From positions 688 to 64,687 of the forward strand of contig JAICUY010000001.1 of NCBI GenBank assembly GCA_025935615.1: DNA of 64,000 nucleotides, read 5' to 3'. Each line of letters begins with the position of its first letter. Position 1 is the stretch's first letter. This DNA comes from Steroidobacteraceae bacterium. GTDB lineage: Bacteria; Chloroflexota; Limnocylindria; QHBO01. Of this stretch, positions 4,812 through 19,586 are shown in pieces. Both the position numbers and the translations under genes were made by a program. The notes below the pieces were generated by a model. It ran no database searches, was not told the DNA's origin, and saw only the letters and a list, made by a program, of their open reading frames with translations.

Positions 4812-4912
4812 GATCTTCGGCAGCAGCGTTGCTCCTCGGCGAGCGCTCAAGTGGCCGCTTCGGATTGCCGGTGCTATTCGAGGTTGTCGACCGCTTCTGC
4901 TTGAGCGCGCCG
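4757..4912 (+). repeat. Direct repeat: the last ~50 bp of the M20 peptidase gene recurs about 101 bp downstream in the intergenic region
   Basis: Copy 1 is cttcggcctgccggtgttattcgaggttgtgagtacgttctg. Copy 2 is cttcggattgccggtgctattcgaggttgtcgaccgcttctg. Both would translate as GLPVLFEVV..FC. Confidence 0.6.
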
Positions 4913-4968
4913 AGAGGGGTTTTGAGCCCCTCGGCTATACTCCACCGGTTAGCACGCACCATTCGACC

Positions 4969-6009
4969 ATGACCGATCAGACCGATCCCGCACCCGCACC
5001 CCGGGTTCACGCCTTCGTCTTCCCGGGGCAGGGCTCCCAATACGTGGGCATGGGCCAGACGCTCGTCGACCAATCCCCCATCGCCGCCCAGACGCTCGAA
5101 CGAGCCGATGCGGCCCTCGGCTTCCCGCTGTCACGCCTGATTCTCGAAGGCCCGGCCGAAGAGCTCGACCGGACCGTCAATGCACAGCCGGCCATCCTCG
5201 CCACCAGCGTCGCCTTCCTCGAGGCGATGCGCGACGAGGCGCGCCAGGCGGGCATCGAGCTCGAGCCGCGCGCGGTGGCAGGCCACTCCGCCGGACAGTA
5301 CGCCGCCGCCGTGGCAGCCGACGCCCTCGACTTCGCCGATGCGCTGCGACTGGTCCGCGAACGCGGCCGGATTATGCAGGAGCGCGGCATCGAGGGCGGC
5401 ATGGGCGCGGTCATCGGCCTGACGGACGAGCAGGTGGACGAGATCGTGGAGCAGGCGCGCGAGCACGGGGAGATCGCCGTCGCCAACGACAACGCCCCGG
5501 GCCAGATCGTCCTGTCCGGCGTCATCCCGGCCCTGGTCTTCGCCCTCGAGATGAGCAAAACGGTCGGTGCGCGCCGCGCCGTGCGGCTGACGGTGAGCGT
5601 CGCCAGCCACTCCCCGCTCATGCGCCGCGCGCGGGAGGAGTTCAGCTCGATCCTCGCCCGCGTCCCGTTCCGCGAACCGAACGTGCCGATGCTCGGCAAC
5701 GTCCACGCCAGCGTGATCCACACCGCTGACGGGCTGCGCAGCGAGCTGTCCGACCACCTCGTCCACGGCGTGCAGTGGACCGACACCGTGCGGCGCATGG
5801 TCGCCGACGGCGTCACCGACTTCGTCGAGGTCGGCCCGGGCCGGGTGCTGACCGGGCTCATCAAGCGCATCAGCCCCGTGTCTGGCGCGCACGCCACCGA
5901 CGCGCCGCGTGCCGATGGTTCGCGCATCTGGCTGCCGTCGACCGGCACCGCCGAGGGCGCGCCGAATGCCGCTGACGGCGCGCCGAATCCCGCCGAGGGC
6001 ACCGCGTGA
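4969..6009 (+). CDS. fabD: Malonyl-CoA:ACP transacylase
   Basis: FVFPGQGSQYVGMG and active-site GHSAGQYAA. Has a ~40 aa Ala/Pro/Gly-rich C-terminal tail. The stop overlaps the next gene. Confidence 0.9.
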   Translation: MTDQTDPAPAPRVHAFVFPGQGSQYVGMGQTLVDQSPIAAQTLERADAALGFPLSRLILEGPAEELDRTVNAQPAILATSVAFLEAMRDEARQAGIELEPRAVAGHSAGQYAAAVAADALDFADALRLVRERGRIMQERGIEGGMGAVIGLTDEQVDEIVEQAREHGEIAVANDNAPGQIVLSGVIPALVFALEMSKTVGARRAVRLTVSVASHSPLMRRAREEFSSILARVPFREPNVPMLGNVHASVIHTADGLRSELSDHLVHGVQWTDTVRRMVADGVTDFVEVGPGRVLTGLIKRISPVSGAHATDAPRADGSRIWLPSTGTAEGAPNAADGAPNPAEGTA

Positions 6010-7286
6010 GCCAGCGCCGGGCCGTGGTGACCGGCCTGGGCGTGGTGTCTCCGGTCGGTATCGGCCTCGACCAGGCCTGGGAGTCGCTGGTGGCCGGTCG
6101 GTCGGGGATCGCCGACGTCACGCTGTTCGACGCATCGGCCTACGACATCCACGTCGCCGGCGAGGTCAAGGGCTTCGACGCGACGAAGTACATGGAGCCG
6201 CGCGACGTGCGCCGCCACGACCGCAACACGCACCTCGCGGTGGCCGCCACCGGCGAGGCGCTGCGCAACGCCGGCATGCTGAATGGCGATAACCGCCTGA
6301 CCGGCGTCGATCCTGATCGATTCGGGATGGTCTTCGGCACGGGCATCGGCGGCATCGGGATCATGACGGAGGGCATCCGCACGCTGATCGAGCGCGGCCC
6401 GGGCCGCATCAGCCCCTTCCTGCTGCCGCACATGCTGCCCGACTCTGCCTCCGGGCAGGTGGCCATCGAGTTCGGCATTCGCGGCCCGAACATGGCGGTC
6501 GTCAGCGCCTGCGCCACCGGCGGCCACGCCGTCGGTGAGGCGATGGAGACGATCGTGCGCGGCCAGGCGGACGTCATGCTCGGCGCCGGCACCGAGGCGG
6601 TCATCGTGCCGCTGGCCTTTGCCGGCTTCCAGCAGATGAAGGCGCTTGGTTCGCCCATCGACCCCGACAGCGGCGAGTACAACCCGGCCATCGCCTCGCG
6701 CCCGTTCGACGCCACGCGTGACGGCTTCGTGGTCAGTGAGGGGGCGGCGGTGCTCGTCCTTGAGGAGCTCGAGCACGCCCGCGCCCGCGGCGCCACACCC
6801 ATCGCCGAGGTAATCGGCTACGGGTCGGCGGCGGACGCGTTCCACATGGCCGCCCCGGCCGAGCAGGGTGAAGGCAACCAGCGCGCCATGCGCGCAGCGC
6901 TGCAGCGTGCCGGCATCGGTCCGGACGAGGTCGACTACATCAACCCGCACGGAACGTCGACGCCGCTCAACGACCGGTTCGAGACGATGGCCATCGAGGC
7001 CGTCTTCGGCGAGCACGCCCGCGAGCTGGCCATCTCCAGCACCAAGTCGATGACCGGCCACATGATGGGCGCGGCCGGTGCCCTTGAGGCGCTGGTCTGC
7101 GCCCAGGTCATCCGCACCGGCTGCATTCCGCCCACCATCAACTACCGGCATCCGGATCCGGAGCTGACCCTCGACTATGTGCCGAACACGGCTCGCGCCG
7201 CCGACGTCCGGGTGGCGCTCTCCAACTCGATGGGCCTGGGCGGCCACAACTCGACGGTGATCCTGCGCCGCCTCGATGAGGACTGA
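6006..7286 (+). CDS. fabF: Beta-ketoacyl-ACP synthase II (KAS II, KasA/FabF-like), copy 1
   Basis: Catalytic Cys in VVSACATGGHAVGEA. His motifs NPHGTSTPLND and KSMTGHMMGAAG. C-terminal NSMGLGGHNS. Confidence 0.9.
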   Translation: MSQRRAVVTGLGVVSPVGIGLDQAWESLVAGRSGIADVTLFDASAYDIHVAGEVKGFDATKYMEPRDVRRHDRNTHLAVAATGEALRNAGMLNGDNRLTGVDPDRFGMVFGTGIGGIGIMTEGIRTLIERGPGRISPFLLPHMLPDSASGQVAIEFGIRGPNMAVVSACATGGHAVGEAMETIVRGQADVMLGAGTEAVIVPLAFAGFQQMKALGSPIDPDSGEYNPAIASRPFDATRDGFVVSEGAAVLVLEELEHARARGATPIAEVIGYGSAADAFHMAAPAEQGEGNQRAMRAALQRAGIGPDEVDYINPHGTSTPLNDRFETMAIEAVFGEHARELAISSTKSMTGHMMGAAGALEALVCAQVIRTGCIPPTINYRHPDPELTLDYVPNTARAADVRVALSNSMGLGGHNSTVILRRLDED

Positions 7287-8523
7287 CGGGCGCCGCGCGG
7301 TCGTCACCGGCGTTGGCGCGGTGACGCCCATCGGCAACGACGCAGACACCTACTGGCGCAACCTGGTGGCCGGCGTCTCCGGGGTGGCGCGCATCACCGC
7401 CTACGACCCGTCCGCCGAGGAGGTCCAGATCGCGGCCGAGGTCAAGGGCTTCGAGCCACGCGACTTCATGGACTTCAAGCAGGCGCGACGCATGAGCCGG
7501 TTCAGCCAGCTGGCGGTGGCGGCGGCGGCCCAGGCCATCGCCTCAGCCGGCCTGGAGGTGACCGATGCGAACCGCGACGACATCGCGGTGGTCGTCAACA
7601 CCGGCGGCGGCGGCATCGGCGACGTCGCGCTCGGTGAGCGCATCTTCCTGGAGCAGGGCGGCAAGCGGGTCAGCCCGTTCATGGTGCCGATGCTGTCGCC
7701 GTCCATGGCGGCCTGCCAGATCAGCATCCAGAACGACCTGCGCGGGCCGGTGGTGACCGCCGTGGCCGCCTGCGCGTCGAGCGCGCAGGCCTTCGTCGAC
7801 GCGCAGCGCATGATCGAGCACGGCGACGCCGAGGTGGTGGTCGCCGGCGGAACGGAGAGCGCCATCCTGCCGGTTGCCTTCGCGGCACTGGCCAACATGG
7901 GCGCGCTGTCGAAGCGCAACGAAGATCCCGAGCGCGCCTCGCGTCCCTTCGACGCCGGGCGCGACGGGTTCGTCTTCGGCGAGGGAGCCGCCGTTCTGGT
8001 GGTCGAGGCGGCGGAGCACGCCGAACGTCGCGGTGCACCGATCCTGGCGGAGATCGCGGGGGGTGGCATGACCGCCGACGCGTACCACATCTCGGCTCCC
8101 GAGCCGTCGGGCAGTGGCGCGGCGCGCGCCATGACCCGTGCCCTGCGCGACGCAGGCATGGAGCCTGAGCAGATCACCTATGTCGCCGCCCACGGCACGT
8201 CGACGCCGCTCAACGATGCGACCGAGACGAAGGCCATCCACGCCGCCTTCGGCGCGCACGCGCCAAAGCTGGCGGTCAGCTCCAACAAGAGCATGATCGG
8301 CCACACCCTTGGCGCGGCCGGCGCCATGAGCGCGCTGGCTGCCGTCCTTGCCATCCGCGACGGCGTGATCCCGCCGACCATCAACTACGAGACGCCCGAT
8401 CCCGCCTGCGATCTCGACTATGTCGCGAACGTCGCGCGCCGCACCCCGGTCGAGGCGGCCATCGTCAACGGCTTCGGCTTCGGCGGCCAGAATGCGGTGG
8501 CCGTCTTCCGCAGGTACGCGTAG
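7276..8523 (+). CDS. fabF: Beta-ketoacyl-ACP synthase II (KAS II, KasB/FabF-like), copy 2
   Basis: Catalytic Cys in AVAACASSAQAF. His motifs AAHGTSTPLND and KSMIGHTLGAAG. Overlaps copy 1 by 11 nt. Confidence 0.9.
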   Translation: MRTDGRRAVVTGVGAVTPIGNDADTYWRNLVAGVSGVARITAYDPSAEEVQIAAEVKGFEPRDFMDFKQARRMSRFSQLAVAAAAQAIASAGLEVTDANRDDIAVVVNTGGGGIGDVALGERIFLEQGGKRVSPFMVPMLSPSMAACQISIQNDLRGPVVTAVAACASSAQAFVDAQRMIEHGDAEVVVAGGTESAILPVAFAALANMGALSKRNEDPERASRPFDAGRDGFVFGEGAAVLVVEAAEHAERRGAPILAEIAGGGMTADAYHISAPEPSGSGAARAMTRALRDAGMEPEQITYVAAHGTSTPLNDATETKAIHAAFGAHAPKLAVSSNKSMIGHTLGAAGAMSALAAVLAIRDGVIPPTINYETPDPACDLDYVANVARRTPVEAAIVNGFGFGGQNAVAVFRRYA

Positions 8524-8578
8524 CGGGCGGACCATCGGCCCGCTCGGGCCCGGGCCGCCCAGCCCGTACGCTGCCGGC

Positions 8579-9037
8579 GTGACCGAAGTGAACGGCTTGC
8601 GCCTCGCCTACCGCGGCTTCATCGGCGGCCTGGCCGCCAGCTATGCCTGGCTGGCGCTGGCGATGGTGCTGTCGGGGCTGCTCGTGGCCGACCCGCTCGC
8701 GCCGCTGCGACCGATGGCCTCCGCGCTCTCGCCGGCAGCGACGTCGGCCGAGCTCGCCTTCGTGCTCGGCCTGCTGCTGACGCAGGCGGGCGGCGGACTG
8801 GCCGGGATCTGCTTCGCGTACTTCTTCGCCCGCTTCTTCACGGTGCGCCGCACGCTGCTCGTCGCCGCCGCCTCGTACGCGGTTCTGTCGTGGGCCCTGG
8901 TGCAGGCCGCCGGCCTCGGCGTGCCACCGGCGGTGGCGCCGGCGACCGTGGTGGCCGCGCTGGGCTACGGCCTCCTGCTCGGTGTCGGGACACCGTTGCG
9001 CAGCGAGGTGCTGCGGACTCAGTCGCCGGTCACGTAG
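8579..9037 (+). CDS. Hypothetical membrane protein (about 4 TM segments)
   Basis: The hydrophobic ORF portion starts at an in-frame GTG (VTEVNGLRLAYRGFIGGLAA...). The upstream part of track ORF 8420-9037 overlaps the fabF end and looks non-coding. Confidence 0.45.
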   Translation: MTEVNGLRLAYRGFIGGLAASYAWLALAMVLSGLLVADPLAPLRPMASALSPAATSAELAFVLGLLLTQAGGGLAGICFAYFFARFFTVRRTLLVAAASYAVLSWALVQAAGLGVPPAVAPATVVAALGYGLLLGVGTPLRSEVLRTQSPVT

Positions 9038-9603
9038 AGCTGCGGCTCGTGCTGCGGCCGGTGACCCGGCAGCGTCCCGACCCAGTCGCGCAGTGCCGAC
9101 TCGGTGGTGCTGAATGCCAGCTCCCCCCACGGCAACTCGTCGGGCGCAAACGCACGCACCTCGGAGGTCTCGGCGCCCGGCGCGGCCTCGCCGCCGACCA
9201 CGGTCGCCTCGTAGATCAGCGTCACCACCCCGGCGTGCGGCCGCGAATAGACGCCGATCAGGCGTCCGACCTCGACCAGCAGCCGGGTCTCCTCCTCCGT
9301 CTCGCGCCGCGCTCCCTCGGCGGTCGACTCGCCGAGCTCGAGGAACCCGCCGGGGTAGCTCCAGCGTCCGCTTGCCGGTTCGATCGCACGCCGCGCAAGC
9401 AGCACACGACCATCGGAGACCGGCAGCGTCCCGACCACCATCCGCGGATTGCGCCAGGTGACGTGATCGTTGGGGCAGACCAGGCGCGGACGGTGATCGG
9501 CTTCGAGCAGCTTCGCCCGGACGGGCTCGCCGCAGGCGGGACAGAAGCGCGGTTCCTCCCCAAGGCTGACGGGATGGTGCGAGGTCGTGTCGCGCTCCGG
9601 CAT
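9019..9603 (-). CDS. NUDIX hydrolase with N-terminal zinc ribbon
   Basis: Nudix box GGFLELGESTAEGARRETEEETRL. N-terminal CPACG...CPNDH. Confidence 0.85.
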   Translation of the reverse strand: MPERDTTSHHPVSLGEEPRFCPACGEPVRAKLLEADHRPRLVCPNDHVTWRNPRMVVGTLPVSDGRVLLARRAIEPASGRWSYPGGFLELGESTAEGARRETEEETRLLVEVGRLIGVYSRPHAGVVTLIYEATVVGGEAAPGAETSEVRAFAPDELPWGELAFSTTESALRDWVGTLPGHRPQHEPQLYVTGD

Positions 9604-9668
9604 GTGTCCATGCTAGAGCGCCGGCCGCGGGTGGGCGGGGGCGCCGGGCGCATCGGTACAATGCGGGC

Positions 9669-9851
9669 ATGAGCCTCGAAATGACCGCGCCCGAACGCGA
9701 CCTGCTGCTCGACATCCTCACCGATGAGCTGGGACGCCTGAAGGGCGAGATCTACAAGACCGAGACCTGGGAGTACAAGGAGCAGCTCAAGGCGCGCGAG
9801 CAGACCCTCGAGTCGCTCATCGCGCGGCTCCAGGACCTCGCGACCGCCTGA
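9669..9851 (+). CDS. Small (60 aa) predicted coiled-coil protein, unknown function
   Basis: Protein-like, Lys/Glu/Leu-rich composition that is atypical for GC-artefact ORFs. Ends 10 nt before cysS. Confidence 0.5.
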   Translation: MSLEMTAPERDLLLDILTDELGRLKGEIYKTETWEYKEQLKAREQTLESLIARLQDLATA

Positions 9852-9861
9852 CGCCGCTCCC

Positions 9862-11283
9862 ATGACCGATGCGCTGCCCGAGGTGCGGCTCTACAACTCG
9901 CTGACCAGATCGGTCGAGAGGCTGCGGCCGCTCGAACCGGGACGGGTCTCGATCTACACCTGCGGCAGCACGGTGTACCGCTACGCTCATATCGGCAACC
10001 TGCGGACCTACCTGTTCGGCGATCTCCTGCATCGGACGCTCGAGTACCTCGGCTACGAGGTGCGCTACGTGAAGAACATCACCGACGTCGGGCACATGCG
10101 CGACGACACGCCGGACCAGGACCGCATGGAGCTGGCGGCCGAAACCGAGGGCCGATCGCCGTCCGAGATCGCGCAGTTCTACACCGATGCCTGGCTCACC
10201 GACGAGCGGCTGCTCAACATCCTGCCGGCCGACGTCATGCCGCGTGCCACCGAGCACGTCCCGCAGATGCTCGAGCTGACCGCGACGCTGCTCGACAAGG
10301 GGCTGGCCTACGAGGTCGACGGCACGGTCTATTACGACGTCAGCGCCTTCGCGGGCTACGGCAAGCTGTCGGGGCAGCGGCTGGAGGAGATGAAGCCCGG
10401 GCATCGTGTCGACGTCGAGTCCGACAAGCGCGATCCGGAGGACTTCGCGCTGTGGAAGGCAGCCGGCGAGCATCGGCTCATGAAATGGCCATCACCCTGG
10501 GGCGATGGCTTCCCGGGATGGCACATTGAGTGCTCGGCCATGTCGATGCACTACCTCGGCGACCGCTTCGACGTCCACACCGGCGGGATCGATCTCAAGT
10601 TCCCCCACCACGAGGATGAGATCGCGCAATCCGAGGGCGCGCTCGGCCACCAGGTCGTGAGCATCTGGATGCACGGCGAGTTCCTCACCCTGGCCGACGC
10701 CAAGATGGCGAAATCCGCCGGCAACGTCATCCGCGTCGCCGATCTGCCGTCGAAGGGCTTTGAGCCGCTCGCCTTCCGCTACCTGGCGCTGACGGCACAC
10801 TACCGCTCGAAGCTCGACTTCACCGAGAGGGCCATGCACGCCGCGGCCTCGGCGCTCCGGCGCCTGCGGCGAGCGGTCGCGGAAGGAGCATCCGAGCGGA
10901 CCGATGCGGACCTCTCCGCGGCGCCGCTGGCTGGCTATCGCGATCGTTTCGTGGCTGCCGTCTCGGAGGACCTCGGCCTGCCGGCGGCGTTGGCGGTCGC
11001 CCATGCCGTGGCGAGCGACGGCGACCTGACGCCGCCGCAGCGACGTGTGCTGCTGCTCGATTTCGATCGGGTGCTCGGATTGTCGCTGGACGCCCCGGTC
11101 GGCGGGGAGGTGGAGCTGCCGGAGGGCGCCGCCGCGCTGCTCGCCCGTCGGGCCGAGGCGCGCGAGGCACGCGATTTCGCGACCTCCGATGCGTTGCGCG
11201 ACGAGCTGGCGGCGCTCGGCGTCGAGGTCCGCGATACCCGCGACGGCCAGGTCACCACGGTCGCCGGCACCCGGTCCGGATGA
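9862..11283 (+). CDS. cysS: Cysteine--tRNA ligase
   Basis: HIGH-type motif YAHIGNLRTY, KMSKS-type motif KMAKSAGN, and WPSPWGDGFPGWHIECSAM. Confidence 0.95.
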   Translation: MTDALPEVRLYNSLTRSVERLRPLEPGRVSIYTCGSTVYRYAHIGNLRTYLFGDLLHRTLEYLGYEVRYVKNITDVGHMRDDTPDQDRMELAAETEGRSPSEIAQFYTDAWLTDERLLNILPADVMPRATEHVPQMLELTATLLDKGLAYEVDGTVYYDVSAFAGYGKLSGQRLEEMKPGHRVDVESDKRDPEDFALWKAAGEHRLMKWPSPWGDGFPGWHIECSAMSMHYLGDRFDVHTGGIDLKFPHHEDEIAQSEGALGHQVVSIWMHGEFLTLADAKMAKSAGNVIRVADLPSKGFEPLAFRYLALTAHYRSKLDFTERAMHAAASALRRLRRAVAEGASERTDADLSAAPLAGYRDRFVAAVSEDLGLPAALAVAHAVASDGDLTPPQRRVLLLDFDRVLGLSLDAPVGGEVELPEGAAALLARRAEAREARDFATSDALRDELAALGVEVRDTRDGQVTTVAGTRSG

Positions 11284-11341
11284 GGTCATGGCGTCACGCC
11301 GGGCGAATGTTGCCGCGCTGCACCACGTGACGTGGATTTGC

Positions 11342-11371
11342 TTGACGGTGGTAGTACCGGGCTGGTACGTT
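11342..11371 (+). promoter_or_regulatory. Candidate sigma70-type promoter for the lasso precursor operon
   Basis: TTGACG, then 18 nt, then TACGTT, about 47 nt upstream of the precursor ATG. Pattern match only. Confidence 0.25.
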
Positions 11372-11417
11372 TCGCGCAAGGCGACGTGCCCTCACCATCG
11401 TCAGGAGAACTCTCATC

Positions 11418-11564
11418 ATGCAGATCGAGTACGAGGCGCCCCGGATCGAAGATCTGGGTTCCATCGCCGATCACACATTCGACAACCCGGGCAAGGGCGA
11501 CAAGTCGTCCGAGCCCATGGAGACTGACAAGTTCGGCGAGTATTCGCATCCCTTCGCCAGCTGA
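11418..11564 (+). CDS. Lasso peptide precursor (A peptide), 48 aa: MQIEYEAPRIEDLGSIADHTF / DNPGKGDKSSEPMETDKFGEYSHPFAS
   Basis: Not in the ORF track (<60 aa). AGGAGA lies 9 nt upstream of the ATG. The leader fits YxxPxLx3Gx5Tx (Y-17, P-14, I-12, G-8, T-2). Located immediately upstream of the lasso cyclase, RRE and the rest of the cluster. The translation was cross-checked against the overlapping track frames. Confidence 0.8.
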   Translation: MQIEYEAPRIEDLGSIADHTFDNPGKGDKSSEPMETDKFGEYSHPFAS

Positions 11565-11586
11565 CCAGCGCTCCGCTCTGACGACG

Positions 11587-11616
11587 AACCGGGCCTTCGG
11601 GCCCGGTTTTCGTTTC
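11587..11616 (+). terminator. Stem-loop plus U-rich tract just after the precursor gene (terminator/attenuator)
   Basis: aaccgggcc-ttcg-ggcccggtt (9 bp GC-rich stem, tetraloop) followed by ttcgtttcc. It sits between the precursor stop and the cyclase start. Confidence 0.5.
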
Positions 11617-11650
11617 CCGGCGATCAACCTCCACCCGTCACCCTGACGCC

Positions 11651-13429
11651 GTGGCTGCCATCGCGCTGGCCCATGGCCGGCAGTCAGCTCCCGCCGCGAG
11701 CGTGGTCGAGGCGATGCTCGCCGCCGCGCCGCACCGCGGCCCGACGCACCAGACCTTGATCCATGGCTCCACGGTGCTCGGAATCAGCCGCGGCGAGGAC
11801 GACGAGGACGCCTGTCTCGGGACTGACCGCGGCTTCGCGATCTGCTTCGCCGGTTCGTTCGACAACATGGCCGATCTCGGCATCGAGCTGGGGCTCGACG
11901 ACGGAAGCCGAACCGGGACCGTCGCCGACGTCCTGGGTGTCCTGGCCGAAGGCTACCGCCGCTTCCGCGAGGAGCTGCCGAACCGGATGCGCGGCGTCTA
12001 CGCCGTCGCCATCAGCGACGGCCAACGCGTGCTGTGCTTCCGCGACCACGTCGGCTACCGACCACTCTTCTATCGCTTCGACACGGACGCGCTGTACGCG
12101 GCCAGTGAAGCCAAGCAGGTCATCGCCGGTGCAGGCATCCCGCGTCAGCCGGACCTCGACGTGGTGGAGGCGATCTATTTCCGGACATATGACGACGCGA
12201 CGCCGGCGGCGCTGCGCGGCGTACGGCGGCTGCCCAAGGCGACCAGCCTGTCGCTTGCCGGGGGTCAACCGCGGCTGCAACGGTACTGGCATCCCGAACG
12301 GCTGCTCGAGACGGCCACCTTCAGCCGCGCCGAGCTGAAGGAACGATTCACGTCGCTCATGGAGCAGGCCGTCGGTCGCAGCCTCTCGCGGCCGGCCGCC
12401 ATCTCGCTCAGCGGCGGGATCGACTCTCCGGCGGTTGCCGCATTCGCCGCACCGATCCATCGCCACCGCTTCGGTCGCCCGCTGCAGGCCTTGTCCGTCG
12501 TGTACCCGCGCCATCCCTCGGTCGACGAGAGCAGCTACGTCAAGATCGTCACCGCTGCGCTCGATATCCCACTGCATGCCTACGAGCAGACGGCGAACGC
12601 CGTCGCCGATCTGCGGCGCTGGACCGCATTGGCCGATACGCCGTATCCGGCCGCGGCCCTGGCCCAATACGAGGAGGACTACCTCCGCGCCCGGGCTTTG
12701 GACGCCCGCGTCCTGCTGACCGGGGAGCACGCCGAATTCGTGATGGGCATGCAATGGCACGTCCTCGACCACCTGCTGACGCACCGCCGCTGGACCCCCG
12801 CGGCGCGGCAGCTGCGCGAGCGGCGCGGCCGCGGTGCATCGTGGATTGGCCTGACCCGCCTGGTGTTGCGCTCGCTGGCCTCGGACCGCGTGATGGCCGC
12901 GCGCAACCGCTTCGCTGCCCGACCGGCCAGCGTTCCGGCCTGGATCGACCGGAGCCGGCTCGTTCCCGACGATCCCGTCTCGGCGCGCGAACGATGGCGC
13001 GACTCGCAATTGACCGGCTTCGTCGGCCCCGGCATCTCACTCGAAGCGGAGGAGGTCTGCCAGCAGGTCTGCGGCGTGCGATCGCGCAAGCCGTGGACCG
13101 ATATCGACCTCTGGGAGTTCTTCCTCAGCCTGCCGGCCGAGATGAAGTTCCCCGACCTGCGGGCGAAGGGCCTGGTGCGCGACCTGCTCCGCGGACGCGT
13201 GCCGGATGAAATCCTCGACCGGCGCGACAAGACGGTCTTCGATGCAGCCGCGATGGCCGACGTCGACTACGCCGCGCTGCGCGGCCTGCTGATCGATTCG
13301 CCGCACCGGATCAGCGGCGTCGATTATCGGCGACTGGCCGCGGCGCTCGACGCCGAGCGACTGACCCCGATCGAGTACCGCTGGGCGCGGAACCTCGCCA
13401 ACGTCCACGCATTCCTGTCACAGTGGTGA
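11651..13429 (+). CDS. Lasso peptide macrolactam synthetase (C protein; asparagine synthetase B-like)
   Basis: 592 aa. PP-loop-type LSGGIDSPAVAAFA. AsnB-like architecture. Sits between the precursor and the PqqD-like gene. Confidence 0.85.
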   Translation: MAAIALAHGRQSAPAASVVEAMLAAAPHRGPTHQTLIHGSTVLGISRGEDDEDACLGTDRGFAICFAGSFDNMADLGIELGLDDGSRTGTVADVLGVLAEGYRRFREELPNRMRGVYAVAISDGQRVLCFRDHVGYRPLFYRFDTDALYAASEAKQVIAGAGIPRQPDLDVVEAIYFRTYDDATPAALRGVRRLPKATSLSLAGGQPRLQRYWHPERLLETATFSRAELKERFTSLMEQAVGRSLSRPAAISLSGGIDSPAVAAFAAPIHRHRFGRPLQALSVVYPRHPSVDESSYVKIVTAALDIPLHAYEQTANAVADLRRWTALADTPYPAAALAQYEEDYLRARALDARVLLTGEHAEFVMGMQWHVLDHLLTHRRWTPAARQLRERRGRGASWIGLTRLVLRSLASDRVMAARNRFAARPASVPAWIDRSRLVPDDPVSARERWRDSQLTGFVGPGISLEAEEVCQQVCGVRSRKPWTDIDLWEFFLSLPAEMKFPDLRAKGLVRDLLRGRVPDEILDRRDKTVFDAAAMADVDYAALRGLLIDSPHRISGVDYRRLAAALDAERLTPIEYRWARNLANVHAFLSQW

Positions 13430-13722
13430 ACGTGGAGATCACGGTCGAATCGGTCGTCCAGCGCAACCCGCAGGTCGTCGGCCGCGCCCTGGCGCCGGGC
13501 GAGGGGGGCGTCCTGCTCCACCTCTCGACCGCGGCCTACCATCGGGTGAACCCGGTGGGACTGGCGATCTGGGACCTCCTCGAGCATCCGCGCCGCGTCG
13601 ACGACGTCATCACCGCGCTGCGCGAAACCGTGGCGAATGCGCCGGCTGCGCTCGACCGCGACGTGCTCACCTTCCTGCAGTCGGTGGTGGATCGTGACCT
13701 CGTGCTCGTGGAAGAGGCCTAA
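13423..13722 (+). CDS. PqqD-like RiPP recognition element (lasso B1 protein)
   Basis: 99 aa. PqqD-family pattern: GGVLLHLSTAAYHRVNPVGLAIWDLLEHPRRVDDVITAL...DVLTFLQSVVDRDLV. Overlaps the cyclase stop by 7 nt. Confidence 0.8.
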   Translation: MVNVEITVESVVQRNPQVVGRALAPGEGGVLLHLSTAAYHRVNPVGLAIWDLLEHPRRVDDVITALRETVANAPAALDRDVLTFLQSVVDRDLVLVEEA

Positions 13723-15038
13723 GCTCGCGAGCGGCCATCAAAGCGCGCTACGCCGATGACGTGCCCGTCCAGCGCGATTCCCTCGACTGAGCGGTAGCCT
13801 GACTCGACCATCTCGTTCGCAAGCGCGTCCCACTGGTCCGGGAGCATCTGAAGCACGACCGCAGCGCCGGGCCGCAGGAACGGCCGGGCGTCGCGAATGA
13901 GCTGCCGCTGGAGGCCGAGGCCATCAGCGCCCCTTCCCTCGACCGTTGCGGCAGGCACCGATCCGAGCGCCACCCGGCGGGTCGAGGGAACGTACGGGAG
14001 GTTCGCGATCAGGCAGTCGACCGGTCCGATGCCCGACGGATCCATTCCGGCCAGCAACGCTCCACGCTCGAAGCGCACCGCCAGGCCGAGTCGGGCTGCG
14101 TTCCTGCTCGCGGCGCGCACGGCTCGACCGGATCGATCGGTGCCGACCACCGTTGCCTGCGGCAGGCGCGCCGCAATCCCGAGCGCGATGGCACCGCAGC
14201 CGGTTCCGATTTCGAGCAGCAGCGGCCGCTCGACCGCCTCGATGTGCCGCAGCGCGACATCGATGACCACGTCGGCCGACGCGGTCGGCACGAACACGCC
14301 GGGCGGCACGATCACCTCGATTCCGGCCAGTCGGACGCGAACGCCGAGATCGCCGTACGCCGGCGCGCCGGCCAGCAGGCGCCGCAGCCTCGCCGGACGA
14401 GCCCACCGCTGGAACCCCGAGGCGATCGTCCATGCCGGGCCCAGCGCTCCACCGAAGATCGGACCTGGTCCCGGCCGATCCGGGCCGCCGAGAGCGCGTC
14501 GCGCGCGATCCAGCGCCGCATGCACGCCGCTCTCGACGGCAATGCGCCGGGCCGCGCGCCAGTCGAGCGTGCCCGCCATCACACGCAGCCGCTCCCAATC
14601 CGCCTCGTGTCCCCGTCCTGGACGGCACGACTGCACGGCCAGATGCACCGCGAGCGCTTCGGGATCGGGCGTGCGCAGTGGACCGTCTCCGCCAGACGCC
14701 AACAAGCGCCCGGCGAGCGCGTCGAGGCTCGCCGGCGGAAATGGGGCGGCCGGCAGGCCCCAGAGCAGATCGAGGTACTGGCCCGTATCGGTCCAGTAGG
14801 TTCGGCCAGGCTGGAGCCGGCCAAGGCCGCGCCGGACCCACGAGTAGCGCCAATCGAGCAACTCGACGGCGGTCGTCGCCGCGGCGCGGCTGTCGCGCGC
14901 GACCAGCACCTGCATCGGTCGATAGCCCGCCTGCGCAGTCGCCGGCAGTGCCGTGCCGGTCAGCACAACGCCCGACAGCCCGCCCGCTCCGAATCCTTCG
15001 GCGATGGAGTCCTGGTCGAGCCCGCGCATCGCCGGCAC
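13719..15038 (-). CDS. Fusion protein: N-terminal degenerate nucleotidyltransferase-like (PF14907-like) domain plus C-terminal HemK/PrmC-like class I SAM methyltransferase
   Basis: C-terminal half has VFVPTASADVVIDVAL, SAM motif LLEIGTGCGAIALGIA, VVGTDRS and motif IV ANLPYVP (an NPPY variant). The N-terminal half aligns by eye to the 18462-19586 protein (YLDLLWGL vs PLDLHWSL; ALAVHLAVQ vs RLIHLAVHG; LDWRAARRIA vs VDWSAVAERS). GTG start lies 4 nt after the B2 stop. Confidence 0.7.
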   Translation of the reverse strand: MPAMRGLDQDSIAEGFGAGGLSGVVLTGTALPATAQAGYRPMQVLVARDSRAAATTAVELLDWRYSWVRRGLGRLQPGRTYWTDTGQYLDLLWGLPAAPFPPASLDALAGRLLASGGDGPLRTPDPEALAVHLAVQSCRPGRGHEADWERLRVMAGTLDWRAARRIAVESGVHAALDRARRALGGPDRPGPGPIFGGALGPAWTIASGFQRWARPARLRRLLAGAPAYGDLGVRVRLAGIEVIVPPGVFVPTASADVVIDVALRHIEAVERPLLLEIGTGCGAIALGIAARLPQATVVGTDRSGRAVRAASRNAARLGLAVRFERGALLAGMDPSGIGPVDCLIANLPYVPSTRRVALGSVPAATVEGRGADGLGLQRQLIRDARPFLRPGAAVVLQMLPDQWDALANEMVESGYRSVEGIALDGHVIGVARFDGRSRA

Positions 15039-15042
15039 GGGG

Positions 15043-15510
15043 CTATGCCGGACGGGGGTAGCGGGTCATCTCCTCGTAGCCGGCGCCACCAGGCGGCGGT
15101 CCGATGTCGCGGCCGTCGAGGAGGACCCAGGCGTGTGCATCGGGCGATGCGGCGCGGTGATGGAGACCAATGACCAGCTCGGCGGCGTCACCCTGCGCCC
15201 GCAACATCCGGTAGAGCACCAGCGCCCGCACCAGGCAACGCGGCTGCCAGGGACCGATGCGCAGGCCGCGGGTGACGGCGCGGCTCAGCAGCGCCAACGG
15301 GACGCGCTGGCGACTGGTGCCCGGCGGCGCCGATGCGACCGCCTGCAACGGCTGACGGCGCAACGCAACAGCCACGCGTGCGGCGCTGACCCAGACCCTC
15401 ACCAGCAGCCGCGCCTGCTCGCCACGCGAGGCAGGCTTCATGGCCGGCCCGGTCGGCGCGGGGGTCGATGACATGCGCGGATAGTGCCGCACGCGGCTCG
15501 CGCCCGCCAC
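15043..15510 (-). CDS. Lasso leader peptidase (B2 protein; transglutaminase-like Cys protease)
   Basis: CLVRALVLYRMLRAQG...ELVIGL...AHAWVLLDGRDIG matches the B2 Cys...His core pattern. The start may be 15510 or the internal Met at 15474. Confidence 0.8.
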   Translation of the reverse strand: MAGASRVRHYPRMSSTPAPTGPAMKPASRGEQARLLVRVWVSAARVAVALRRQPLQAVASAPPGTSRQRVPLALLSRAVTRGLRIGPWQPRCLVRALVLYRMLRAQGDAAELVIGLHHRAASPDAHAWVLLDGRDIGPPPGGAGYEEMTRYPRPA

Positions 15511-15519
15511 GGGCGCGGG

Positions 15520-16446
15520 TCAGCGCACGTTCGCGACCAGTCGTTCGAGCGCATCGATCACCTCCTGCATGCGGGCCATGCTGAGCGGCCGGTGGAGGTC
15601 GTAGGCCGGAACGCGAGACGTCAGGTCGACCACGCGCGCGAAGCAGGAACGGCGCGAGTCGTCCGTCGGAAGACGGAAGCTGAGCGCGAAGAGGTCCCGT
15701 GTCGCGCCGGCGGCATCCAGCGGGCGGATGCCGAGCTGATCGGCCCGCCGCAGCAGGACGATGGCGCGCAGCGGGACCGGCCGTCCGTCGCCCCGTCGCG
15801 CCTGGTCGAAGATTATCGCCTGCCGGCCAGCGTCCGACGAGCCTTCCGCATGACGTGCGCCCGGCAGCCGCAGAAGCTGCGCAACGTCCGGCCGCAGGCG
15901 AACCGCCGCCGGTCCGGGGTACAGGGCCGGCTCGGCACCAAGTGCGCAGCGCACCGTGTCTTCGGCCAGCAGCCGGTGGCCGACGGCGGCCAGCCCCGCA
16001 GCCAGGGTCGTCTTGCCGTGCATGCTCGGTCCTGCCAGCAGCAGCGCGCTGCCGCCGATCTCGACCGCCGAGGCGTGGACCGACAGGTCGCCGGCATGCA
16101 GCGCGCACAACGCGGCCGGGATGCCAAGCAGGCGCAACTCGCGTCGCAACGGCTCGGCGCCGCCTTCGACCCGGATCCGCGCGTCATCGGGTGCCACTTC
16201 GTAGCGACCGACGTCGCTTGCCCAGAAGACGTACCTGGTGCCCTGCCGGTGCAGCGTGGCGTGGAACGGGTTGTCCGGCCGCGCATGCCACACCGCGATG
16301 GGCTCGCCGCTGGGCGGCGGCAGATTCGCCTCCTCGACGAGGAGCGGCGTTTCGCCGGAATCGGAGCGCAGCGTCTGGAACGGCAGCGACGATCGCAGCC
16401 CGAAGCCGACGGCGCTGCCGACGACGTCGCGAGAGGGACCTGGCAT
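15520..16446 (-). CDS. HPr kinase/phosphorylase-like protein kinase (lasso precursor Ser kinase type)
   Basis: HASAVEIGGSALLLAGPSMHGKTTLAAGL (HprK C-terminal domain with P-loop). The ATG lies 5 nt after the permease stop. The N-terminal 256 aa of track ORF 15520-17217 are an out-of-frame overlap of the permease gene. Confidence 0.72.
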   Translation of the reverse strand: MPGPSRDVVGSAVGFGLRSSLPFQTLRSDSGETPLLVEEANLPPPSGEPIAVWHARPDNPFHATLHRQGTRYVFWASDVGRYEVAPDDARIRVEGGAEPLRRELRLLGIPAALCALHAGDLSVHASAVEIGGSALLLAGPSMHGKTTLAAGLAAVGHRLLAEDTVRCALGAEPALYPGPAAVRLRPDVAQLLRLPGARHAEGSSDAGRQAIIFDQARRGDGRPVPLRAIVLLRRADQLGIRPLDAAGATRDLFALSFRLPTDDSRRSCFARVVDLTSRVPAYDLHRPLSMARMQEVIDALERLVANVR

Positions 16447-16451
16447 GCCGC

Positions 16452-17285
16452 TCAGTACTGCGACAGGGAGCCGTCGGTCTGGGCGAAGCGGATGGCCCGG
16501 CCGCAGGCCCACAGCCCCAGCGGCACCAGCAGCACGCCGAGCGCAGCGAGCGCGGCGAAGTGCGGCCACAGGGTGGCAAATCCTTCCCCACTCAGCGTCG
16601 AACGCCGCATCAGCTCGAGGGCGTGCGTCAGCGGCAGAAGCTGCGCGAGCGCCTGCAGCCAGACGGGGAGCACGCTGACGGGGTAGAAGACCCCGGCCAA
16701 CAGCACCGACGCCATGCCGAGCAGCAGGCTGATGGGGTTGCCCTGCTTGACGACGATCACCACGCTTGCTGCGACGAGACCCATCCCGTTGAAGGCGACC
16801 ACCGACAGCGCCAGCGCCGCCAGCGCGACCGGCACGTTGGCGCTGCCGAGGTCGAGCCCGAGCGCCAGGCCGACCACGGCGTAGACGAGCAGCGTGACGA
16901 CTGCCATGGCGTGCGCCCAGAGCGAGGCACCGACCAGCAGGACCCATAACCGATTCGGGCTGAGCAGCATGAGCTCCAGCGTTCCCATCAGCTGACCTTC
17001 GCGGACCCGGGAGCTGATGCCCGACAGGCCCAGCGCCAGCAGGTTGGACAGCGCAATGCCGACAAGCGCGAAGGCAAAGTAGTTGCCGCCGTAGGCACTC
17101 AGGTTGCCACCGAGCTGGCCGCCGAAGGCGCGGCCCAGGAAATAGACGCTCAGCACGCTGGCCAGCGACCCGCCGGTCGACAGCAGGAAGCCCATTCGAT
17201 AGCTGGTGGCCGTCCACATGTCGCGAATGAATGTCGCCCCGAGCACGCGCGGCCAGCCGTCCATCACCCGCTCAAGCATCGGCAT
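16452..17285 (-). CDS. ABC-2 type transporter permease
   Basis: 277 aa with about 6 TM segments. Overlaps the ATPase gene end by 14 nt. Confidence 0.8.
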   Translation of the reverse strand: MPMLERVMDGWPRVLGATFIRDMWTATSYRMGFLLSTGGSLASVLSVYFLGRAFGGQLGGNLSAYGGNYFAFALVGIALSNLLALGLSGISSRVREGQLMGTLELMLLSPNRLWVLLVGASLWAHAMAVVTLLVYAVVGLALGLDLGSANVPVALAALALSVVAFNGMGLVAASVVIVVKQGNPISLLLGMASVLLAGVFYPVSVLPVWLQALAQLLPLTHALELMRRSTLSGEGFATLWPHFAALAALGVLLVPLGLWACGRAIRFAQTDGSLSQY

Positions 17286-18267
17286 GCACCGCGCGATAGA
17301 CGTCCTCGAGGGTCGGCTCTCGCGTCGTACAGCCCTCGATCCGCAGTCCGCGATCGAGCAGCAGCTGCAGCACGGCGCTCAGGGAGCCGCGGCCACGATC
17401 CAGGCGCACGCTGATGCGCGAGCCGACGGTCGCTGCCGTCACGTCGGCCGCTTCGACGCCCGGCAGATCACACAACGCCGCCCGCACGGGCTCGGTCCGA
17501 CCGTCGACCGCGAGCTCGACGAAGCTCGAGAGTCCCATCCGCGCGCTCAGCTCACTCATACTGCCGACCTCGATCATCGCGCCGCGCCGCATGATCGCGA
17601 TCCGATCGCAGATGGCCTCGGCTTCGGAGAGCGCGTGCGTCGCCAGGAAGACGGTGTATCCGCGCTTCCCGACGATGTGGCTGGTGATGTAGGTGCGCAG
17701 CTCGTCCGCCGCGATCGGATCGAGGGCGCGAGTCGGCTCATCGAGAAACAGGATCTGCGGATCGGTCAGCATGCCGCGCGCGATTCCGAACTTCTGGCGG
17801 GTGCCGGTCGAATAGCTGTCGAAGCGCCGGTCGGCATACTCGCTGACGCCCAGCGTATCCAGCAGCTCGTCGATGCGCCGATCGATCAGGCGGCGCGGCA
17901 CGTGGTACAGCGTCGCGAAGTACCACAGGTTCTGGCGTCCGGTGAGGCGCCAGTAGAAGCTGCGTTCGTCACCACTCACCAGCCCGATCAGCTGCCGGAC
18001 GCGATGCGGCTCGTCCACCACGTCGTGGCCGCCCACCAGCGCACGCCCCGAGGTCGGAAGCAGGGTCGTCGTCAGCATCCGGATCAGCGTCGTCTTTCCC
18101 GCACCGTTCTCGCCGAGCAGACCGAACAGCTCGCCGCGCCGCACACTCAGGTCGACGCCGTCGACGGCGGCGTCGCGTGCCGGCTGACGACCGTAGCGCA
18201 GCAGGTCCCGATAGCCGCTCACACGGCGGAACCGCTTGGTCAGATGCTCCGTTTCGATCGCGTTCAC
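17272..18267 (-). CDS. ABC transporter ATP-binding protein (DrrA/ABC-2 type)
   Basis: Walker A GENGAGKTT, signature YSTGTRQKF, Walker B ILFLDEPT. A GTG at 18267 is preceded by GGAG. The track ORF extends to 18369. Confidence 0.88.
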   Translation of the reverse strand: MNAIETEHLTKRFRRVSGYRDLLRYGRQPARDAAVDGVDLSVRRGELFGLLGENGAGKTTLIRMLTTTLLPTSGRALVGGHDVVDEPHRVRQLIGLVSGDERSFYWRLTGRQNLWYFATLYHVPRRLIDRRIDELLDTLGVSEYADRRFDSYSTGTRQKFGIARGMLTDPQILFLDEPTRALDPIAADELRTYITSHIVGKRGYTVFLATHALSEAEAICDRIAIMRRGAMIEVGSMSELSARMGLSSFVELAVDGRTEPVRAALCDLPGVEAADVTAATVGSRISVRLDRGRGSLSAVLQLLLDRGLRIEGCTTREPTLEDVYRAVHADA

Positions 18268-18461
18268 ACGACGCTCCGCTGGTCCTCGGCTCCCTCCGTT
18301 CGCCGGCACATGATGCCGGGCGGCGCGAAGGGGTGGCAGTATGCATCGCCTAGCGGTCGCGCGCCGCATGACGTTCAGTCGCCGGGAGGCCCACTCTGCC
18401 GTTCCTTCGTCGGTTTTCCGGTCGGCGCCTTCCGGGCACCCGATCCGAGCGCGACGCAGCG

Positions 18462-19586
18462 GTGCGCCTACTGTGCCTCTTGGTGGCGGATGAGGCGCCC
18501 GCGCCGGACACGGTCATGGCGCTGCTCCGCCAGACGACCGTGCCCGCTGTCCTGGCGCTCGCGCGCTACCACGCCGTGGCCGGACTCGCCTACGAGCGCC
18601 TCGATCCAGTGCCGGTGCCTGAGCCGTTGCTTCGCGGCCTGGCAGATCTTCGCGAGCAGGCGGTCCGCCGTCACCTCCTGGTGACCTGGGCGCTCGCCCG
18701 GCTGCAGCCACTCCTCGACGCGTCCTCCGTGGCGTGGTCGGTCGTCAAAGGGCCGGTGCTCGCAGAGCTGTACGCGGCGCCGGGGCGGCGCAGCTATCGC
18801 GATCTCGATCTGCTCGTCGATCCTGCGGGCTTTCCCGACGTCCTCGCACGTCTCCAGGAGGCGGGCGGCGAGCTGCTCGATACCAACTGGCGCGTCCTTC
18901 GTCGTGAGCTGCGTGGCGAGCTCCACCTCGTCCTGTCCGGTGGCGTGCCACTCGACCTGCACTGGTCGCTGATCAACATGTATCGGGCCGATACGGCTAT
19001 CGACACGTCCGAGATCCTGGGACGGCGGGTGGCGGTCGAGCTCGGCGGCGTGCCCGCCTGGAGCCTCGAGCCCAGCGACCGACTCATCCATCTGGCGGTT
19101 CACGGAGCGCTGTCAGGCGCCGACCGGCTGGTGTGGATCAAGGATGTGGACCTCGCCGCTCGTGACGCGGCGGTCGATTGGAGCGCGGTCGCCGAGCGAA
19201 GCCGCCGTTGGAAGGTGGCGCGCCCGGTGGGGCTGATGCTGTACCGCGCCGCACGCACCCTCGAGACGCCGCTGCCCCGTGGTCTCGCGGACAGCCTGCT
19301 GGGGCGCCGCTACCGCCGTGTCGCCGACCTCATCGACCGATACTCGCCCTGGCAGCAGGCGCTCGGCAGGGTGACGACGCCGAGCCTGCTGCTGGCGCGC
19401 AGCAGCGGCCAGGGCCCGGTCGGGACGATCGGCTGGCTCGCGCGACGGACGGTTCGCAATCTCGACCCGCGCGAGCCGGCCGCCTCGTCGGCGTTCACGC
19501 CAGCCGGCAGCGACGACGACCGCCGCGCCTACCTAGCGGCGGTCGCCGACGTGGCCAATCCTGCTCGGCGCTCGGTCAGGGAGTGA
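18462..19586 (+). CDS. Nucleotidyltransferase-family protein (uncharacterised NTP_transf_5 / PF14907 type)
   Basis: YRDLDLLVDPAGF (DxD) and LDLHWSL pattern. GTG start. Divergent from the ABC/kinase operon. Confidence 0.68.
   Translation: MRLLCLLVADEAPAPDTVMALLRQTTVPAVLALARYHAVAGLAYERLDPVPVPEPLLRGLADLREQAVRRHLLVTWALARLQPLLDASSVAWSVVKGPVLAELYAAPGRRSYRDLDLLVDPAGFPDVLARLQEAGGELLDTNWRVLRRELRGELHLVLSGGVPLDLHWSLINMYRADTAIDTSEILGRRVAVELGGVPAWSLEPSDRLIHLAVHGALSGADRLVWIKDVDLAARDAAVDWSAVAERSRRWKVARPVGLMLYRAARTLETPLPRGLADSLLGRRYRRVADLIDRYSPWQQALGRVTTPSLLLARSSGQGPVGTIGWLARRTVRNLDPREPAASSAFTPAGSDDDRRAYLAAVADVANPARRSVRE

Follow-up and report, generated by a model that had tools for sequence, protein, structure and literature searches.

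A Chloroflexota gene cluster for a predicted kinase-tailored lasso-type peptide whose ring may close from an internal Lys

Mining tools and textbooks define a lasso peptide by the joining of its new N-terminus to an Asp or Glu at position 7-9 of the core. Lasso systems can additionally be accompanied by tailoring enzymes. In the paeninodin and pseudomycoidin systems, a kinase modifies the linear precursor by phosphorylating its C-terminal Ser, and the nucleotidyltransferase PsmN adds a hexose to this phosphate (PMC6993621, PMC9266682); PsmN was placed in 'a family of uncharacterized nucleotidyltransferases' (PMC6993621). Lasso kinases need not target a C-terminal Ser, as the BsfA kinase acts on Ser3 (PMC10368454). 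In that work, the leader motif YxxPxL at positions -17 to -12 was used to place the cleavage site, and the rule of a Thr at -2 is stated as well. Here, we describe a short open reading frame (ORF) in a stretch of 64,000 nucleotides (nt) of contig JAICUY010000001.1, called the window below, which comes from a genome assembly (GCA_025935615.1) assigned to the Chloroflexota class Limnocylindria. This ORF is predicted to encode the precursor of a lasso-type RiPP (ribosomally synthesised and post-translationally modified peptide) that would be exported and tailored by a kinase and a nucleotidyltransferase. We tentatively favour a ring that closes on Asp16 of the core, probably from the N-epsilon of Lys8, with the first seven residues, DNPGKGD, forming a free N-terminal extension. 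All of the evidence is comparative.

The ORF (11418..11564, plus strand) encodes MQIEYEAPRIEDLGSIADHTFDNPGKGDKSSEPMETDKFGEYSHPFAS, the product of its 48 codons, which divides into the leader MQIEYEAPRIEDLGSIADHTF and the core DNPGKGDKSSEPMETDKFGEYSHPFAS. On the strength of its conservation, it is a real gene and not a chance reading frame, because 78 relatives at 59-90% identity were found in a collection of 5.8 billion proteins, a profile made from the relatives retrieved 148 representative clusters from 1.84 billion proteins searched, and codon differences, counted pairwise at 73-79% nucleotide identity, comprise 12-16 synonymous versus 7-11 non-synonymous changes. Neither Pfam nor NCBIfam has a model that covers the precursor; the leader alone gives a sub-threshold match to the lasso leader model NF033521 (16 bits versus a cutoff of 19). 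An earlier note on this DNA, made from the letters alone, had proposed a lasso-type precursor, and this is borne out by the leader motif, present in the window and in 79/79 near-family sequences, and by the complete lasso-type gene set that the precursor heads, 87 nt before the cyclase gene. The core had also been described correctly as beginning with Asp and ending with Ser, with Asp7 as the only Asp or Glu at positions 7-9 (the others being Lys8 and Ser9). Of the coordinates given for it, 11481-11564, the 27 core codons (11481-11561) stand, and the end needs correction, as it takes in the stop codon.

Sequence similarity indicates that the precursor is a member of a large, uncharacterised soil superfamily spread over Chloroflexota, Actinomycetota and Gemmatimonadota. 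The nearest relatives are Chloroflexota, namely a Candidatus Limnocylindria sequence (P0008) and metagenome-assembled genomes (MAGs) of Chloroflexia (L010, L023), and more distant ones come from Thermoleophilia/Solirubrobacterales, other Actinomycetota and Gemmatimonadota MAGs. The profile search defined two common features, a leader ending in ...GSIAxHTF and a C-terminal module of the form [C/F/L/M]-x-x-D-[K/P]-F-(x)-G-E-[Y/C]-S-[H/C]. The segment between them is variable, and the module Asp accordingly lies anywhere from core position 12 to 55. Counts below refer to the near family (n=79, with 74 unique cores for the Lys8 count), to representative cores (n=122), to anchored unique cores (n=196) or to all cores (about 220); the representatives were called as ORFs in metagenomes, clustered at 50% identity and anchored by regular expressions, and genomic context covered about 25 loci. 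That the core is so unusually well conserved in different phyla may point to a physiological role that is itself conserved, rather than to a hypervariable antibiotic. Two proteins from the profile search, P0173 (199 amino acids, aa) and P0192 (382 aa), contain 4-5 tandem leader-like units (YEPPxLxxLGSxxxLT, followed by DEPSGS...) and look like several lasso-type leader/core units joined in one polypeptide.

The feature that ties these variable cores together is a Lys placed at a nearly constant distance before the module Asp. Lys stands 8-9 residues before this Asp in 94/122 representatives, compared with 19 on average, and never above 33, when the upstream segment is shuffled; in 20 more of the 122, the distance is 10 residues. 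Over the 196 anchored unique cores, the site is occupied by Lys in 188, by Arg in 1 and by neither in 7, and in the near family K8 is found in 74/74 unique cores, whereas K5 varies freely, Arg included. After the invariant Lys come G (41), D (33), S (21) or N. In the window, the pair corresponds to K8 and D16, which delimit the unit K8-S-S-E-P-M-E-T-D16. A unit of fixed size that runs from an invariant amine to an invariant carboxylate is the pattern expected of an enzyme-templated macrolactam.

A second pair of positions covaries around the same Asp. Cys located three residues ahead of the module Asp and Cys directly after E-x-S occur together in 38 cores and are both absent from 66, while the ring-side Cys occurs without its partner in 16 and the tail Cys in 1. 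The arrangement resembles the ring-to-tail disulfides of class I and class III lasso peptides. In the window peptide, the two positions are occupied by Met13 and His23. Phe18, Tyr21, His23 and Phe25 had been put forward earlier as steric plugs; of these, Tyr21 and His23 are plausible, His23 aligning with the tail Cys of the ring-tail Cys pair in relatives.

Invariance of the module Asp would also suit a much larger ring, in which the alpha-amine of Asp1 is joined to Asp16 (or Glu20) in a branched-cyclic peptide of 16-20 residues that would probably be unthreaded, the variable segment looping out between the conserved x-x-P-G start and C-terminal binding elements. Such a closure would account for the conservation of the first four core residues, and the Cys at core position 3, which in 18/19 cases is accompanied by a Cys in the distal E-C-S motif, would bring the N-terminus beside the module; moreover, pseudomycoidin is a kinase-type cluster with an unthreaded branched-cyclic product (PMC6993621). 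We nevertheless consider it improbable, as the ring would range from 12 to 55 residues across the family, unlike any enzyme-templated macrolactam, the invariant Lys would go unexplained, and members with Pro at position 1, described below, oppose an alpha-amine nucleophile.

The start of the core is placed by the leader motif. Y-17, P-14, I/L/V-12, G-8 and T-2 are present in 79/79 near-family sequences, and Asp1 is very probably the mature N-terminus, in agreement with the cut after HTF that had been proposed earlier. The Cys parity of the Cys-containing relatives shows that the segment after HTF stays in the product. Such representative cores carry an even number of Cys in 94/99 cases, and among the 45 representatives with a Cys between HTF and the Lys, the total is even in 43/45, while the number after the Lys is even in 5/45. 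These counts bear directly on an alternative in which a long leader is cut after Lys8, releasing the core SSEPMETDKFGEYSHPFAS as a canonical Ser1-Asp8 lasso (Ser9-Asp16 in window numbering, and Ser1-Asp9 in the relatives that are one residue longer). It would explain both the fixed spacing of 8-9 from the post-Lys residue to the invariant Asp and the preference for G, D and S after the Lys, which resembles canonical position-1 preferences. This alternative seems very improbable to us, since the Cys parity pairs the pre-Lys segment with the module, and since no Thr stands at -2 of such a cut, where P and G dominate, whereas HTF has an invariant Thr at the canonical distance from YxxPxI.

Two further cleavage schemes were considered and set aside. 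Cleavage before Met13, with an 8-residue ring from Met13 to Glu20, has a constant spacing, yet position -2 shows no conservation (T/E/I/V/D/Q/N/P in the alignment, and K/R/G/Q in Cys-containing relatives). A second 'T-x' cut in relatives of the TRC... type, leading to a Cys1-Asp9 ring, fits P0166 and fails in P0140, P0153, P0156, P0103 and P0136, and thus yields no general rule.

The conventional assignment of the ring was examined across the same relatives. It had been stated that the acceptor must be Asp7, and this is not supported by the comparison, as close relatives with T7 or N7 have intact cyclases. Seven of the 79 close relatives read HT[FY] before the cut and QTPGKGTKS after it (Q1, T2, T7), and the core of L011 starts with DNPGQGNKS (N7); none of them has an acid at positions 7-9. 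The cyclases of these acceptor-less relatives are 596-599 aa long, retain the PP-loop SLSGGIDSPA and share more than 150 columns that are invariant across both types. The RiPP recognition protein B1, the leader peptidase B2, the kinase and an NTP_transf_5 protein are present at the QT-type loci, and these genes, together with the full-length conserved cyclases, exclude the view that such clusters are decaying. A search for a second precursor gene at the QT loci found none. In the cyclase tree, QT precursors go with two distant lineages, one of which contains the cyclases nearest to that of the window (L006 at 62% and L023 at 58% identity), which implies that an enzyme closely similar to the window cyclase accepts a substrate lacking Asp7.

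At the level of the superfamily, Asp or Glu at positions 7-9 is found in 35/122 representative cores (29%), versus 34% expected by chance from composition, and is missing from 87/122. As a positive control, 5/5 NCBI-named paeninodin-family precursors showed A or G at position 1, D9 and a terminal Ser. The most non-canonical types (xTPGGxxKGCxxxCHxD... and TRC...ECS) adjoin full-length cyclases, as well as B2, the kinase and NTP_transf_5 where the contig allows. In addition, Pro is core residue 1 in two clusters with intact cyclases. According to PMC13632552, which cites a large survey, Pro is the only residue never found at lasso core position 1, and it is also the only residue 1 that a very tolerant cyclase rejects. 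The Pro1 members argue indirectly against an alpha-amine nucleophile across the family. Taken on the sequences, the Asp7 ring is doubtful, and Asp1, instead of taking part in a 7-residue ring, is probably a free N-terminal residue.

The first seven core residues of the near relatives occur in two discrete states, D-N-P-G-x-G-D and Q-T-P-G-K-G-T, between which positions 1, 2 and 7 switch together. N1 and N1/T2 intermediates always carry D7, and the QT state is found in both short and one-residue-longer core backgrounds. Relatives noted for these states are P0032, P0034, P0045, P0071-P0074, P0079, P0085 and L023.

Several points weigh against closure from Lys8, and many of them favour a class II lasso peptide of the canonical kind, in which the alpha-amine of Asp1 would be joined to Asp7, a threaded tail of 20 residues would be locked by Phe18, Tyr21 and His23, and Ser27 would be phosphorylated. 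The window peptide conforms to every canonical rule for a 7-residue ring. Each of the 72 near-family cores with D1 or N1 retains D7, as do 11/13 D1 representatives, and Q1 pairs with T7; Asp7 is thus under selection for some reason in the D1/N1 subfamily, and this D1/D7 coupling is unexplained by a Lys8-Asp16 ring. The x-x-P-G start is common to paeninodin-family cores, whose ring begins at residue 1, and relatives such as ITPGGHTKD have a canonical Asp9. Rings of seven residues are known from xanthomonins and huascopeptin, and Glu1 is tolerated by at least one cyclase, that of palassoptide A2. Furthermore, no precedent for the use of a Lys side-chain amine by a lasso cyclase was found in the literature searched, and a search for Lys-linked or N-terminally extended lasso peptides returned nothing relevant. 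The invariance of the Lys could reflect recognition or another modification rather than its action as a nucleophile; Asp16 and Glu20 are inseparable as acceptors by sequence; and the argument from Cys parity holds on the assumption of disulfides between these residues. In spite of these points, we regard the canonical ring as unlikely, although it is the main rival. It would have to treat the Q1/T7 and N7 relatives as non-cyclised or differently processed offshoots, even though their cyclases, including those nearest to the window's, and their B1, B2 and kinase are intact. It also offers no account of the invariant Lys...Asp pair at fixed spacing, of the lack of family-wide enrichment of Asp/Glu at 7-9 or of the existence of Pro1 members.

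The coupling of D1 with D7 and the family-wide Lys...Asp signal would be reconciled by a bicyclic product, with one ring from the Asp1 alpha-amine to Asp7 and another from the Lys8 side chain to Asp16 in the D-type members, and the second ring only in the Q1/T7 members, where Gln1 is perhaps pyroglutamate. Lariocidin is a known lasso peptide with a second isopeptide bond. One cyclase would need to perform two regiochemically different closures, and we give this solution very little credence.

For the favoured single closure between Lys8 and Asp16, the following course of maturation can be proposed. B1 would bind the YxxPxI leader, as the family motif suggests, and the HprK-like kinase would phosphorylate Ser27 on the linear precursor, after which NTP_transf_5 may extend the Ser27 phosphate, both by analogy with paeninodin and pseudomycoidin. 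B2 would cut after Thr20-Phe21 of the precursor, so that the product begins with Asp1, in keeping with the motif and with the Cys parity in relatives. The cyclase would then adenylate Asp16, not Asp7, and attack by the side-chain amine of Lys8 would give an isopeptide bond with a 9-residue span, as the comparison of relatives suggests. The tail KFGEYSHPFAS would be held by Tyr21 and His23, DNPGKGD would remain a free N-terminal arm, and the ABC (ATP-binding cassette) transporter would export the product. Still more tentatively, all of the superfamily, which comprises at least 148 clusters at 50% identity, may represent a new lasso-like topology, with an internal Lys N-epsilon joined by a lasso-cyclase homologue to an Asp 8-9 residues downstream, a canonical Thr-x cut, a variable free N-terminal extension of 7 to more than 45 residues, and a C-terminal Ser that is phosphorylated and possibly glycosylated.

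The parallel between the C-terminal Ser and that of paeninodin, drawn in the earlier note, is strengthened by the relatives. Near-family cores end in S (52) or SP (24), that is, in 76/79 cases; Ser or Ser-Pro ends 83/122 representatives, against a Ser background of 9%, and 166/223 cores overall. The kinase stands beside the precursor at every sufficiently long locus, and kinase and NTP_transf_5 accompany the precursor throughout. We infer by analogy that the kinase site is Ser27. The Ser of the E-Y-S motif was considered as a universal kinase target and rejected, as it is replaced in several members (GELAG, GESAG, GETAG), and the terminal Ser or Ser-Pro is far more general.

The features of the precursor and of the surrounding cluster are collected in Table 1.

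Table 1. Features of the precursor gene and the neighbouring cluster, in positions of the window
Feature	Coordinates	Strand	Remarks
Shine-Dalgarno-like AGGAG	11403..11407	+	10 nt before the ATG, read directly
Precursor ORF	11418..11564	+	ATG at 11418, stop TGA at 11562-11564; 48 aa
Leader peptide MQIEYEAPRIEDLGSIADHTF	11418..11480	+	21 aa; Y-17, P-14, I-12, G-8, T-2
Core peptide DNPGKGDKSSEPMETDKFGEYSHPFAS	11481..11561	+	27 aa; followed by stop codon 11562-11564
N-terminal heptapeptide DNPGKGD (Asp1...Asp7)	11481..11501	+	Candidate canonical 7-residue ring, or free extension in the preferred model
Lys8	11502..11504	+	Invariant; proposed N-epsilon nucleophile
Conserved module M13-E-T-D16-K-F-G-E20-Y-S-H23	11517..11549	+	M13 and H23 at covarying Cys-pair positions of relatives
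Asp16, invariant Asp of the C-terminal module	11526..11528	+	Proposed isopeptide acceptor
C-terminal Ser27	11559..11561	+	Likely phosphorylation site, perhaps further hexosylated, by analogy with precedents (PMC6993621, PMC9266682)
GC-rich stem-loop	11580..11614	+	UUCG loop, 3' side rich in U; lies between the precursor gene and that of the cyclase
Lasso cyclase C homologue, Asn_synthase + GATase_7	11651..13429	+	592 aa; PP-loop SLSGGIDSPA
B1 / PqqD-like RiPP recognition element	13423..13722	+	99 aa; PF05402, 50 bits (cutoff 23.4)
Fusion with C-terminal HemK/PrmC-like N-methyltransferase	13719..15038	-	439 aa; N-terminal half of unknown family
B2 leader peptidase, Transglut_core3	15043..15510	-	NF033537, 53.4 bits (cutoff 33); PF13471
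HprK-related kinase	15520..16446	-	308 aa from ATG at 16446; motif H...GPSMHGKTT...AED
ABC-2 permease	16452..17285	-	PF01061
ABC ATPase, DrrA-like	17272..18369	-	Start codon uncertain
NTP_transf_5 'uncharacterised nucleotidyltransferase'	18462..19586	+	374 aa; PF14907, 8.7e-44

The identification of the enzymes rests on profile matches of varying strength. The cyclase matches PF00733 (2.3e-28) and GATase_7, as well as NF033535 at 1.8e-42, which is yet under the strict cutoff of that model, and a PDB sequence search with it returned Asn-synthetase-fold entries only. The kinase matches TIGR04352 (6.7e-10) and PF07475 (8.4e-6), both under the curated cutoffs; its motif was defined as catalytic His / GK[ST] / [DE]D after PMC10368454. 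PDB sequence searches with the kinase and with B2 gave no matches. The N-terminal half of the methyltransferase fusion gave no match in a Pfam search and is weakly similar to NTP_transf_5 in a colinear alignment (29% over 139 aa, E = 0.02).

The methyltransferase part of this fusion carries an NLPY motif, and homologues of the fusion recur in L013, L014, L016, L017, L023 and L027. The L014 core contains neither Gln nor Asn, so the methyltransferase target there is not an amide nitrogen; the alpha-amine, Lys and His are candidates.

The stem-loop between the precursor and cyclase genes has a predicted stability of -30.2 kcal/mol (z = -3.3, with 0/200 shuffles equally stable) and was not called by a simple terminator scan. 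It resembles a terminator or attenuator, which would yield surplus precursor transcript.

Upstream of the cluster lie housekeeping genes, namely a FabD-like gene, two beta-ketoacyl synthase (KAS) genes, NUDIX and CysS. At 4969-8523 (plus strand), the FabD-like acyltransferase gene is followed by the two adjoining KAS genes, with overlapping stop and start codons; this stretch looks like an ordinary fatty-acid synthesis context, although the tandem KAS pair is notable. The gene for cysteinyl-tRNA synthetase (CysS; 9862-11283) directly precedes the precursor in the window and in QT-type relatives (loci L005, L006, L008), and the insertion site of the cluster is thus conserved among the closest relatives; in L010, CysS lies about 10 kb from the precursor on the opposite strand. 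The gene directly after the cluster, at 19576-21615 (minus strand), encodes a protein of 679 aa that contains a cadherin-like/Big_9 domain and three cell-wall-binding repeats of the CWB2 type and is probably an unrelated surface protein.

Other loci of the family show additional elaborations. In L009/L012 (a Conexibacteraceae MAG), positions 3291-19282 contain extra tailoring genes, encoding a GT2-NTP_transf_5 fusion, two more GT2 glycosyltransferases, a 2OG-Fe(II) oxygenase and an acyltransferase_3, and L001 has a PMT-family glycosyltransferase in its cluster; these genes suggest glycosylation as a common elaboration in the family. In L026 (10080-11739) and L027 (9800-13534), the cyclase homologue is broken over several reading frames, as in frameshift pseudogenes or long-read assembly errors, and L027 still has an intact precursor of the NNPGKGD type.

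About 70% of the family members cannot obey the definition of a lasso peptide cited at the outset. If the Lys side chain is used, this would extend lasso cyclase chemistry in a way that is categorically new for a lasso cyclase. It would also offer a scaffold with a free, variable N-terminal arm, useful for engineering, and would mean that current mining tools mis-assign or discard such clusters. Should the conservative Asp1-Asp7 ring be correct instead, the product would still be the first lasso peptide to start with Asp1, its ring would be of the smallest size known, and among kinase-type lasso systems this one would be the first from beyond Firmicutes and Proteobacteria to receive detailed study. 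The two features singled out in the earlier note are in themselves less novel than it supposed. Seven-residue rings have been published for the xanthomonins (2014, Gly1-Glu7) and huascopeptin (2020, Gly1-Asp7), and an acidic residue 1 has been proven in palassoptide A2 from Actinomyces (2026, Glu1-Glu8), with a free carboxylate beside the isopeptide (PMC13632552). No characterised Asp1 lasso peptide was found in the literature searched, and Asp1 combined with a 7-residue ring would be a new combination rather than a new principle.

Among the known systems, xanthomonins I-III and huascopeptin would share the ring size and the closure on residue 7 if the canonical assignment, itself doubtful for the window, were right; they differ in their Gly1 start and in having neither kinase nor nucleotidyltransferase tailoring. 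Palassoptide A2 resembles the window peptide in its acidic residue 1, and differs from it in having Glu instead of Asp, an 8-residue ring, an unrelated precursor family and no tailoring kinase. The BsfA cluster of Bradymonas sediminis likewise contains a kinase and a nucleotidyltransferase, and its cleavage site was placed by YxxPxL; in contrast to the window, it has Ile at -2, a Gly1-Asp8 ring, a phosphorylated Ser3 and a C-terminal Asp (PMC10368454). Lariocidin B, a figure-of-eight lasso, has an isopeptide bond besides the canonical one, but its sequence and cluster are unrelated and its canonical ring is also present.

The Cys-containing relatives resemble the class I and class III lasso peptides (the siamycin/sviceucin type and BI-32169), as they pair a Cys located three residues ahead of the presumed acceptor Asp with a Cys that follows this Asp in the tail by 7-8 residues. 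In the window, Met13 and His23 replace this Cys pair, and the rings of the known classes begin at the N-terminal residue.

Paeninodin and pseudomycoidin share the most with the present locus, including split B1/B2 proteins, an Asn-synthetase-type cyclase, an HprK-like kinase, an ABC exporter, an uncharacterised nucleotidyltransferase (as psmN), a C-terminal Ser, an acidic tail and an x-x-P-G core start; the NTP_transf_5 protein of the window is likened to PsmN by family description only. Membership in the paeninodin family was considered and rejected, as the precursor gives no match to NF033524 at E <= 1 (cutoff 27 bits), whereas the members P0226 and P0227 score 55 and 68 bits. In place of the Ala or Gly at position 1 and the Asp9 of paeninodin, the window core has Asp1 and Ser9, and the two come from different phyla, paeninodin being from Firmicutes. 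Paeninodin also lacks the K...D-K-F-G-E-Y-S-H module, and it is the family of the window that departs from the 7-9 acceptor rule.

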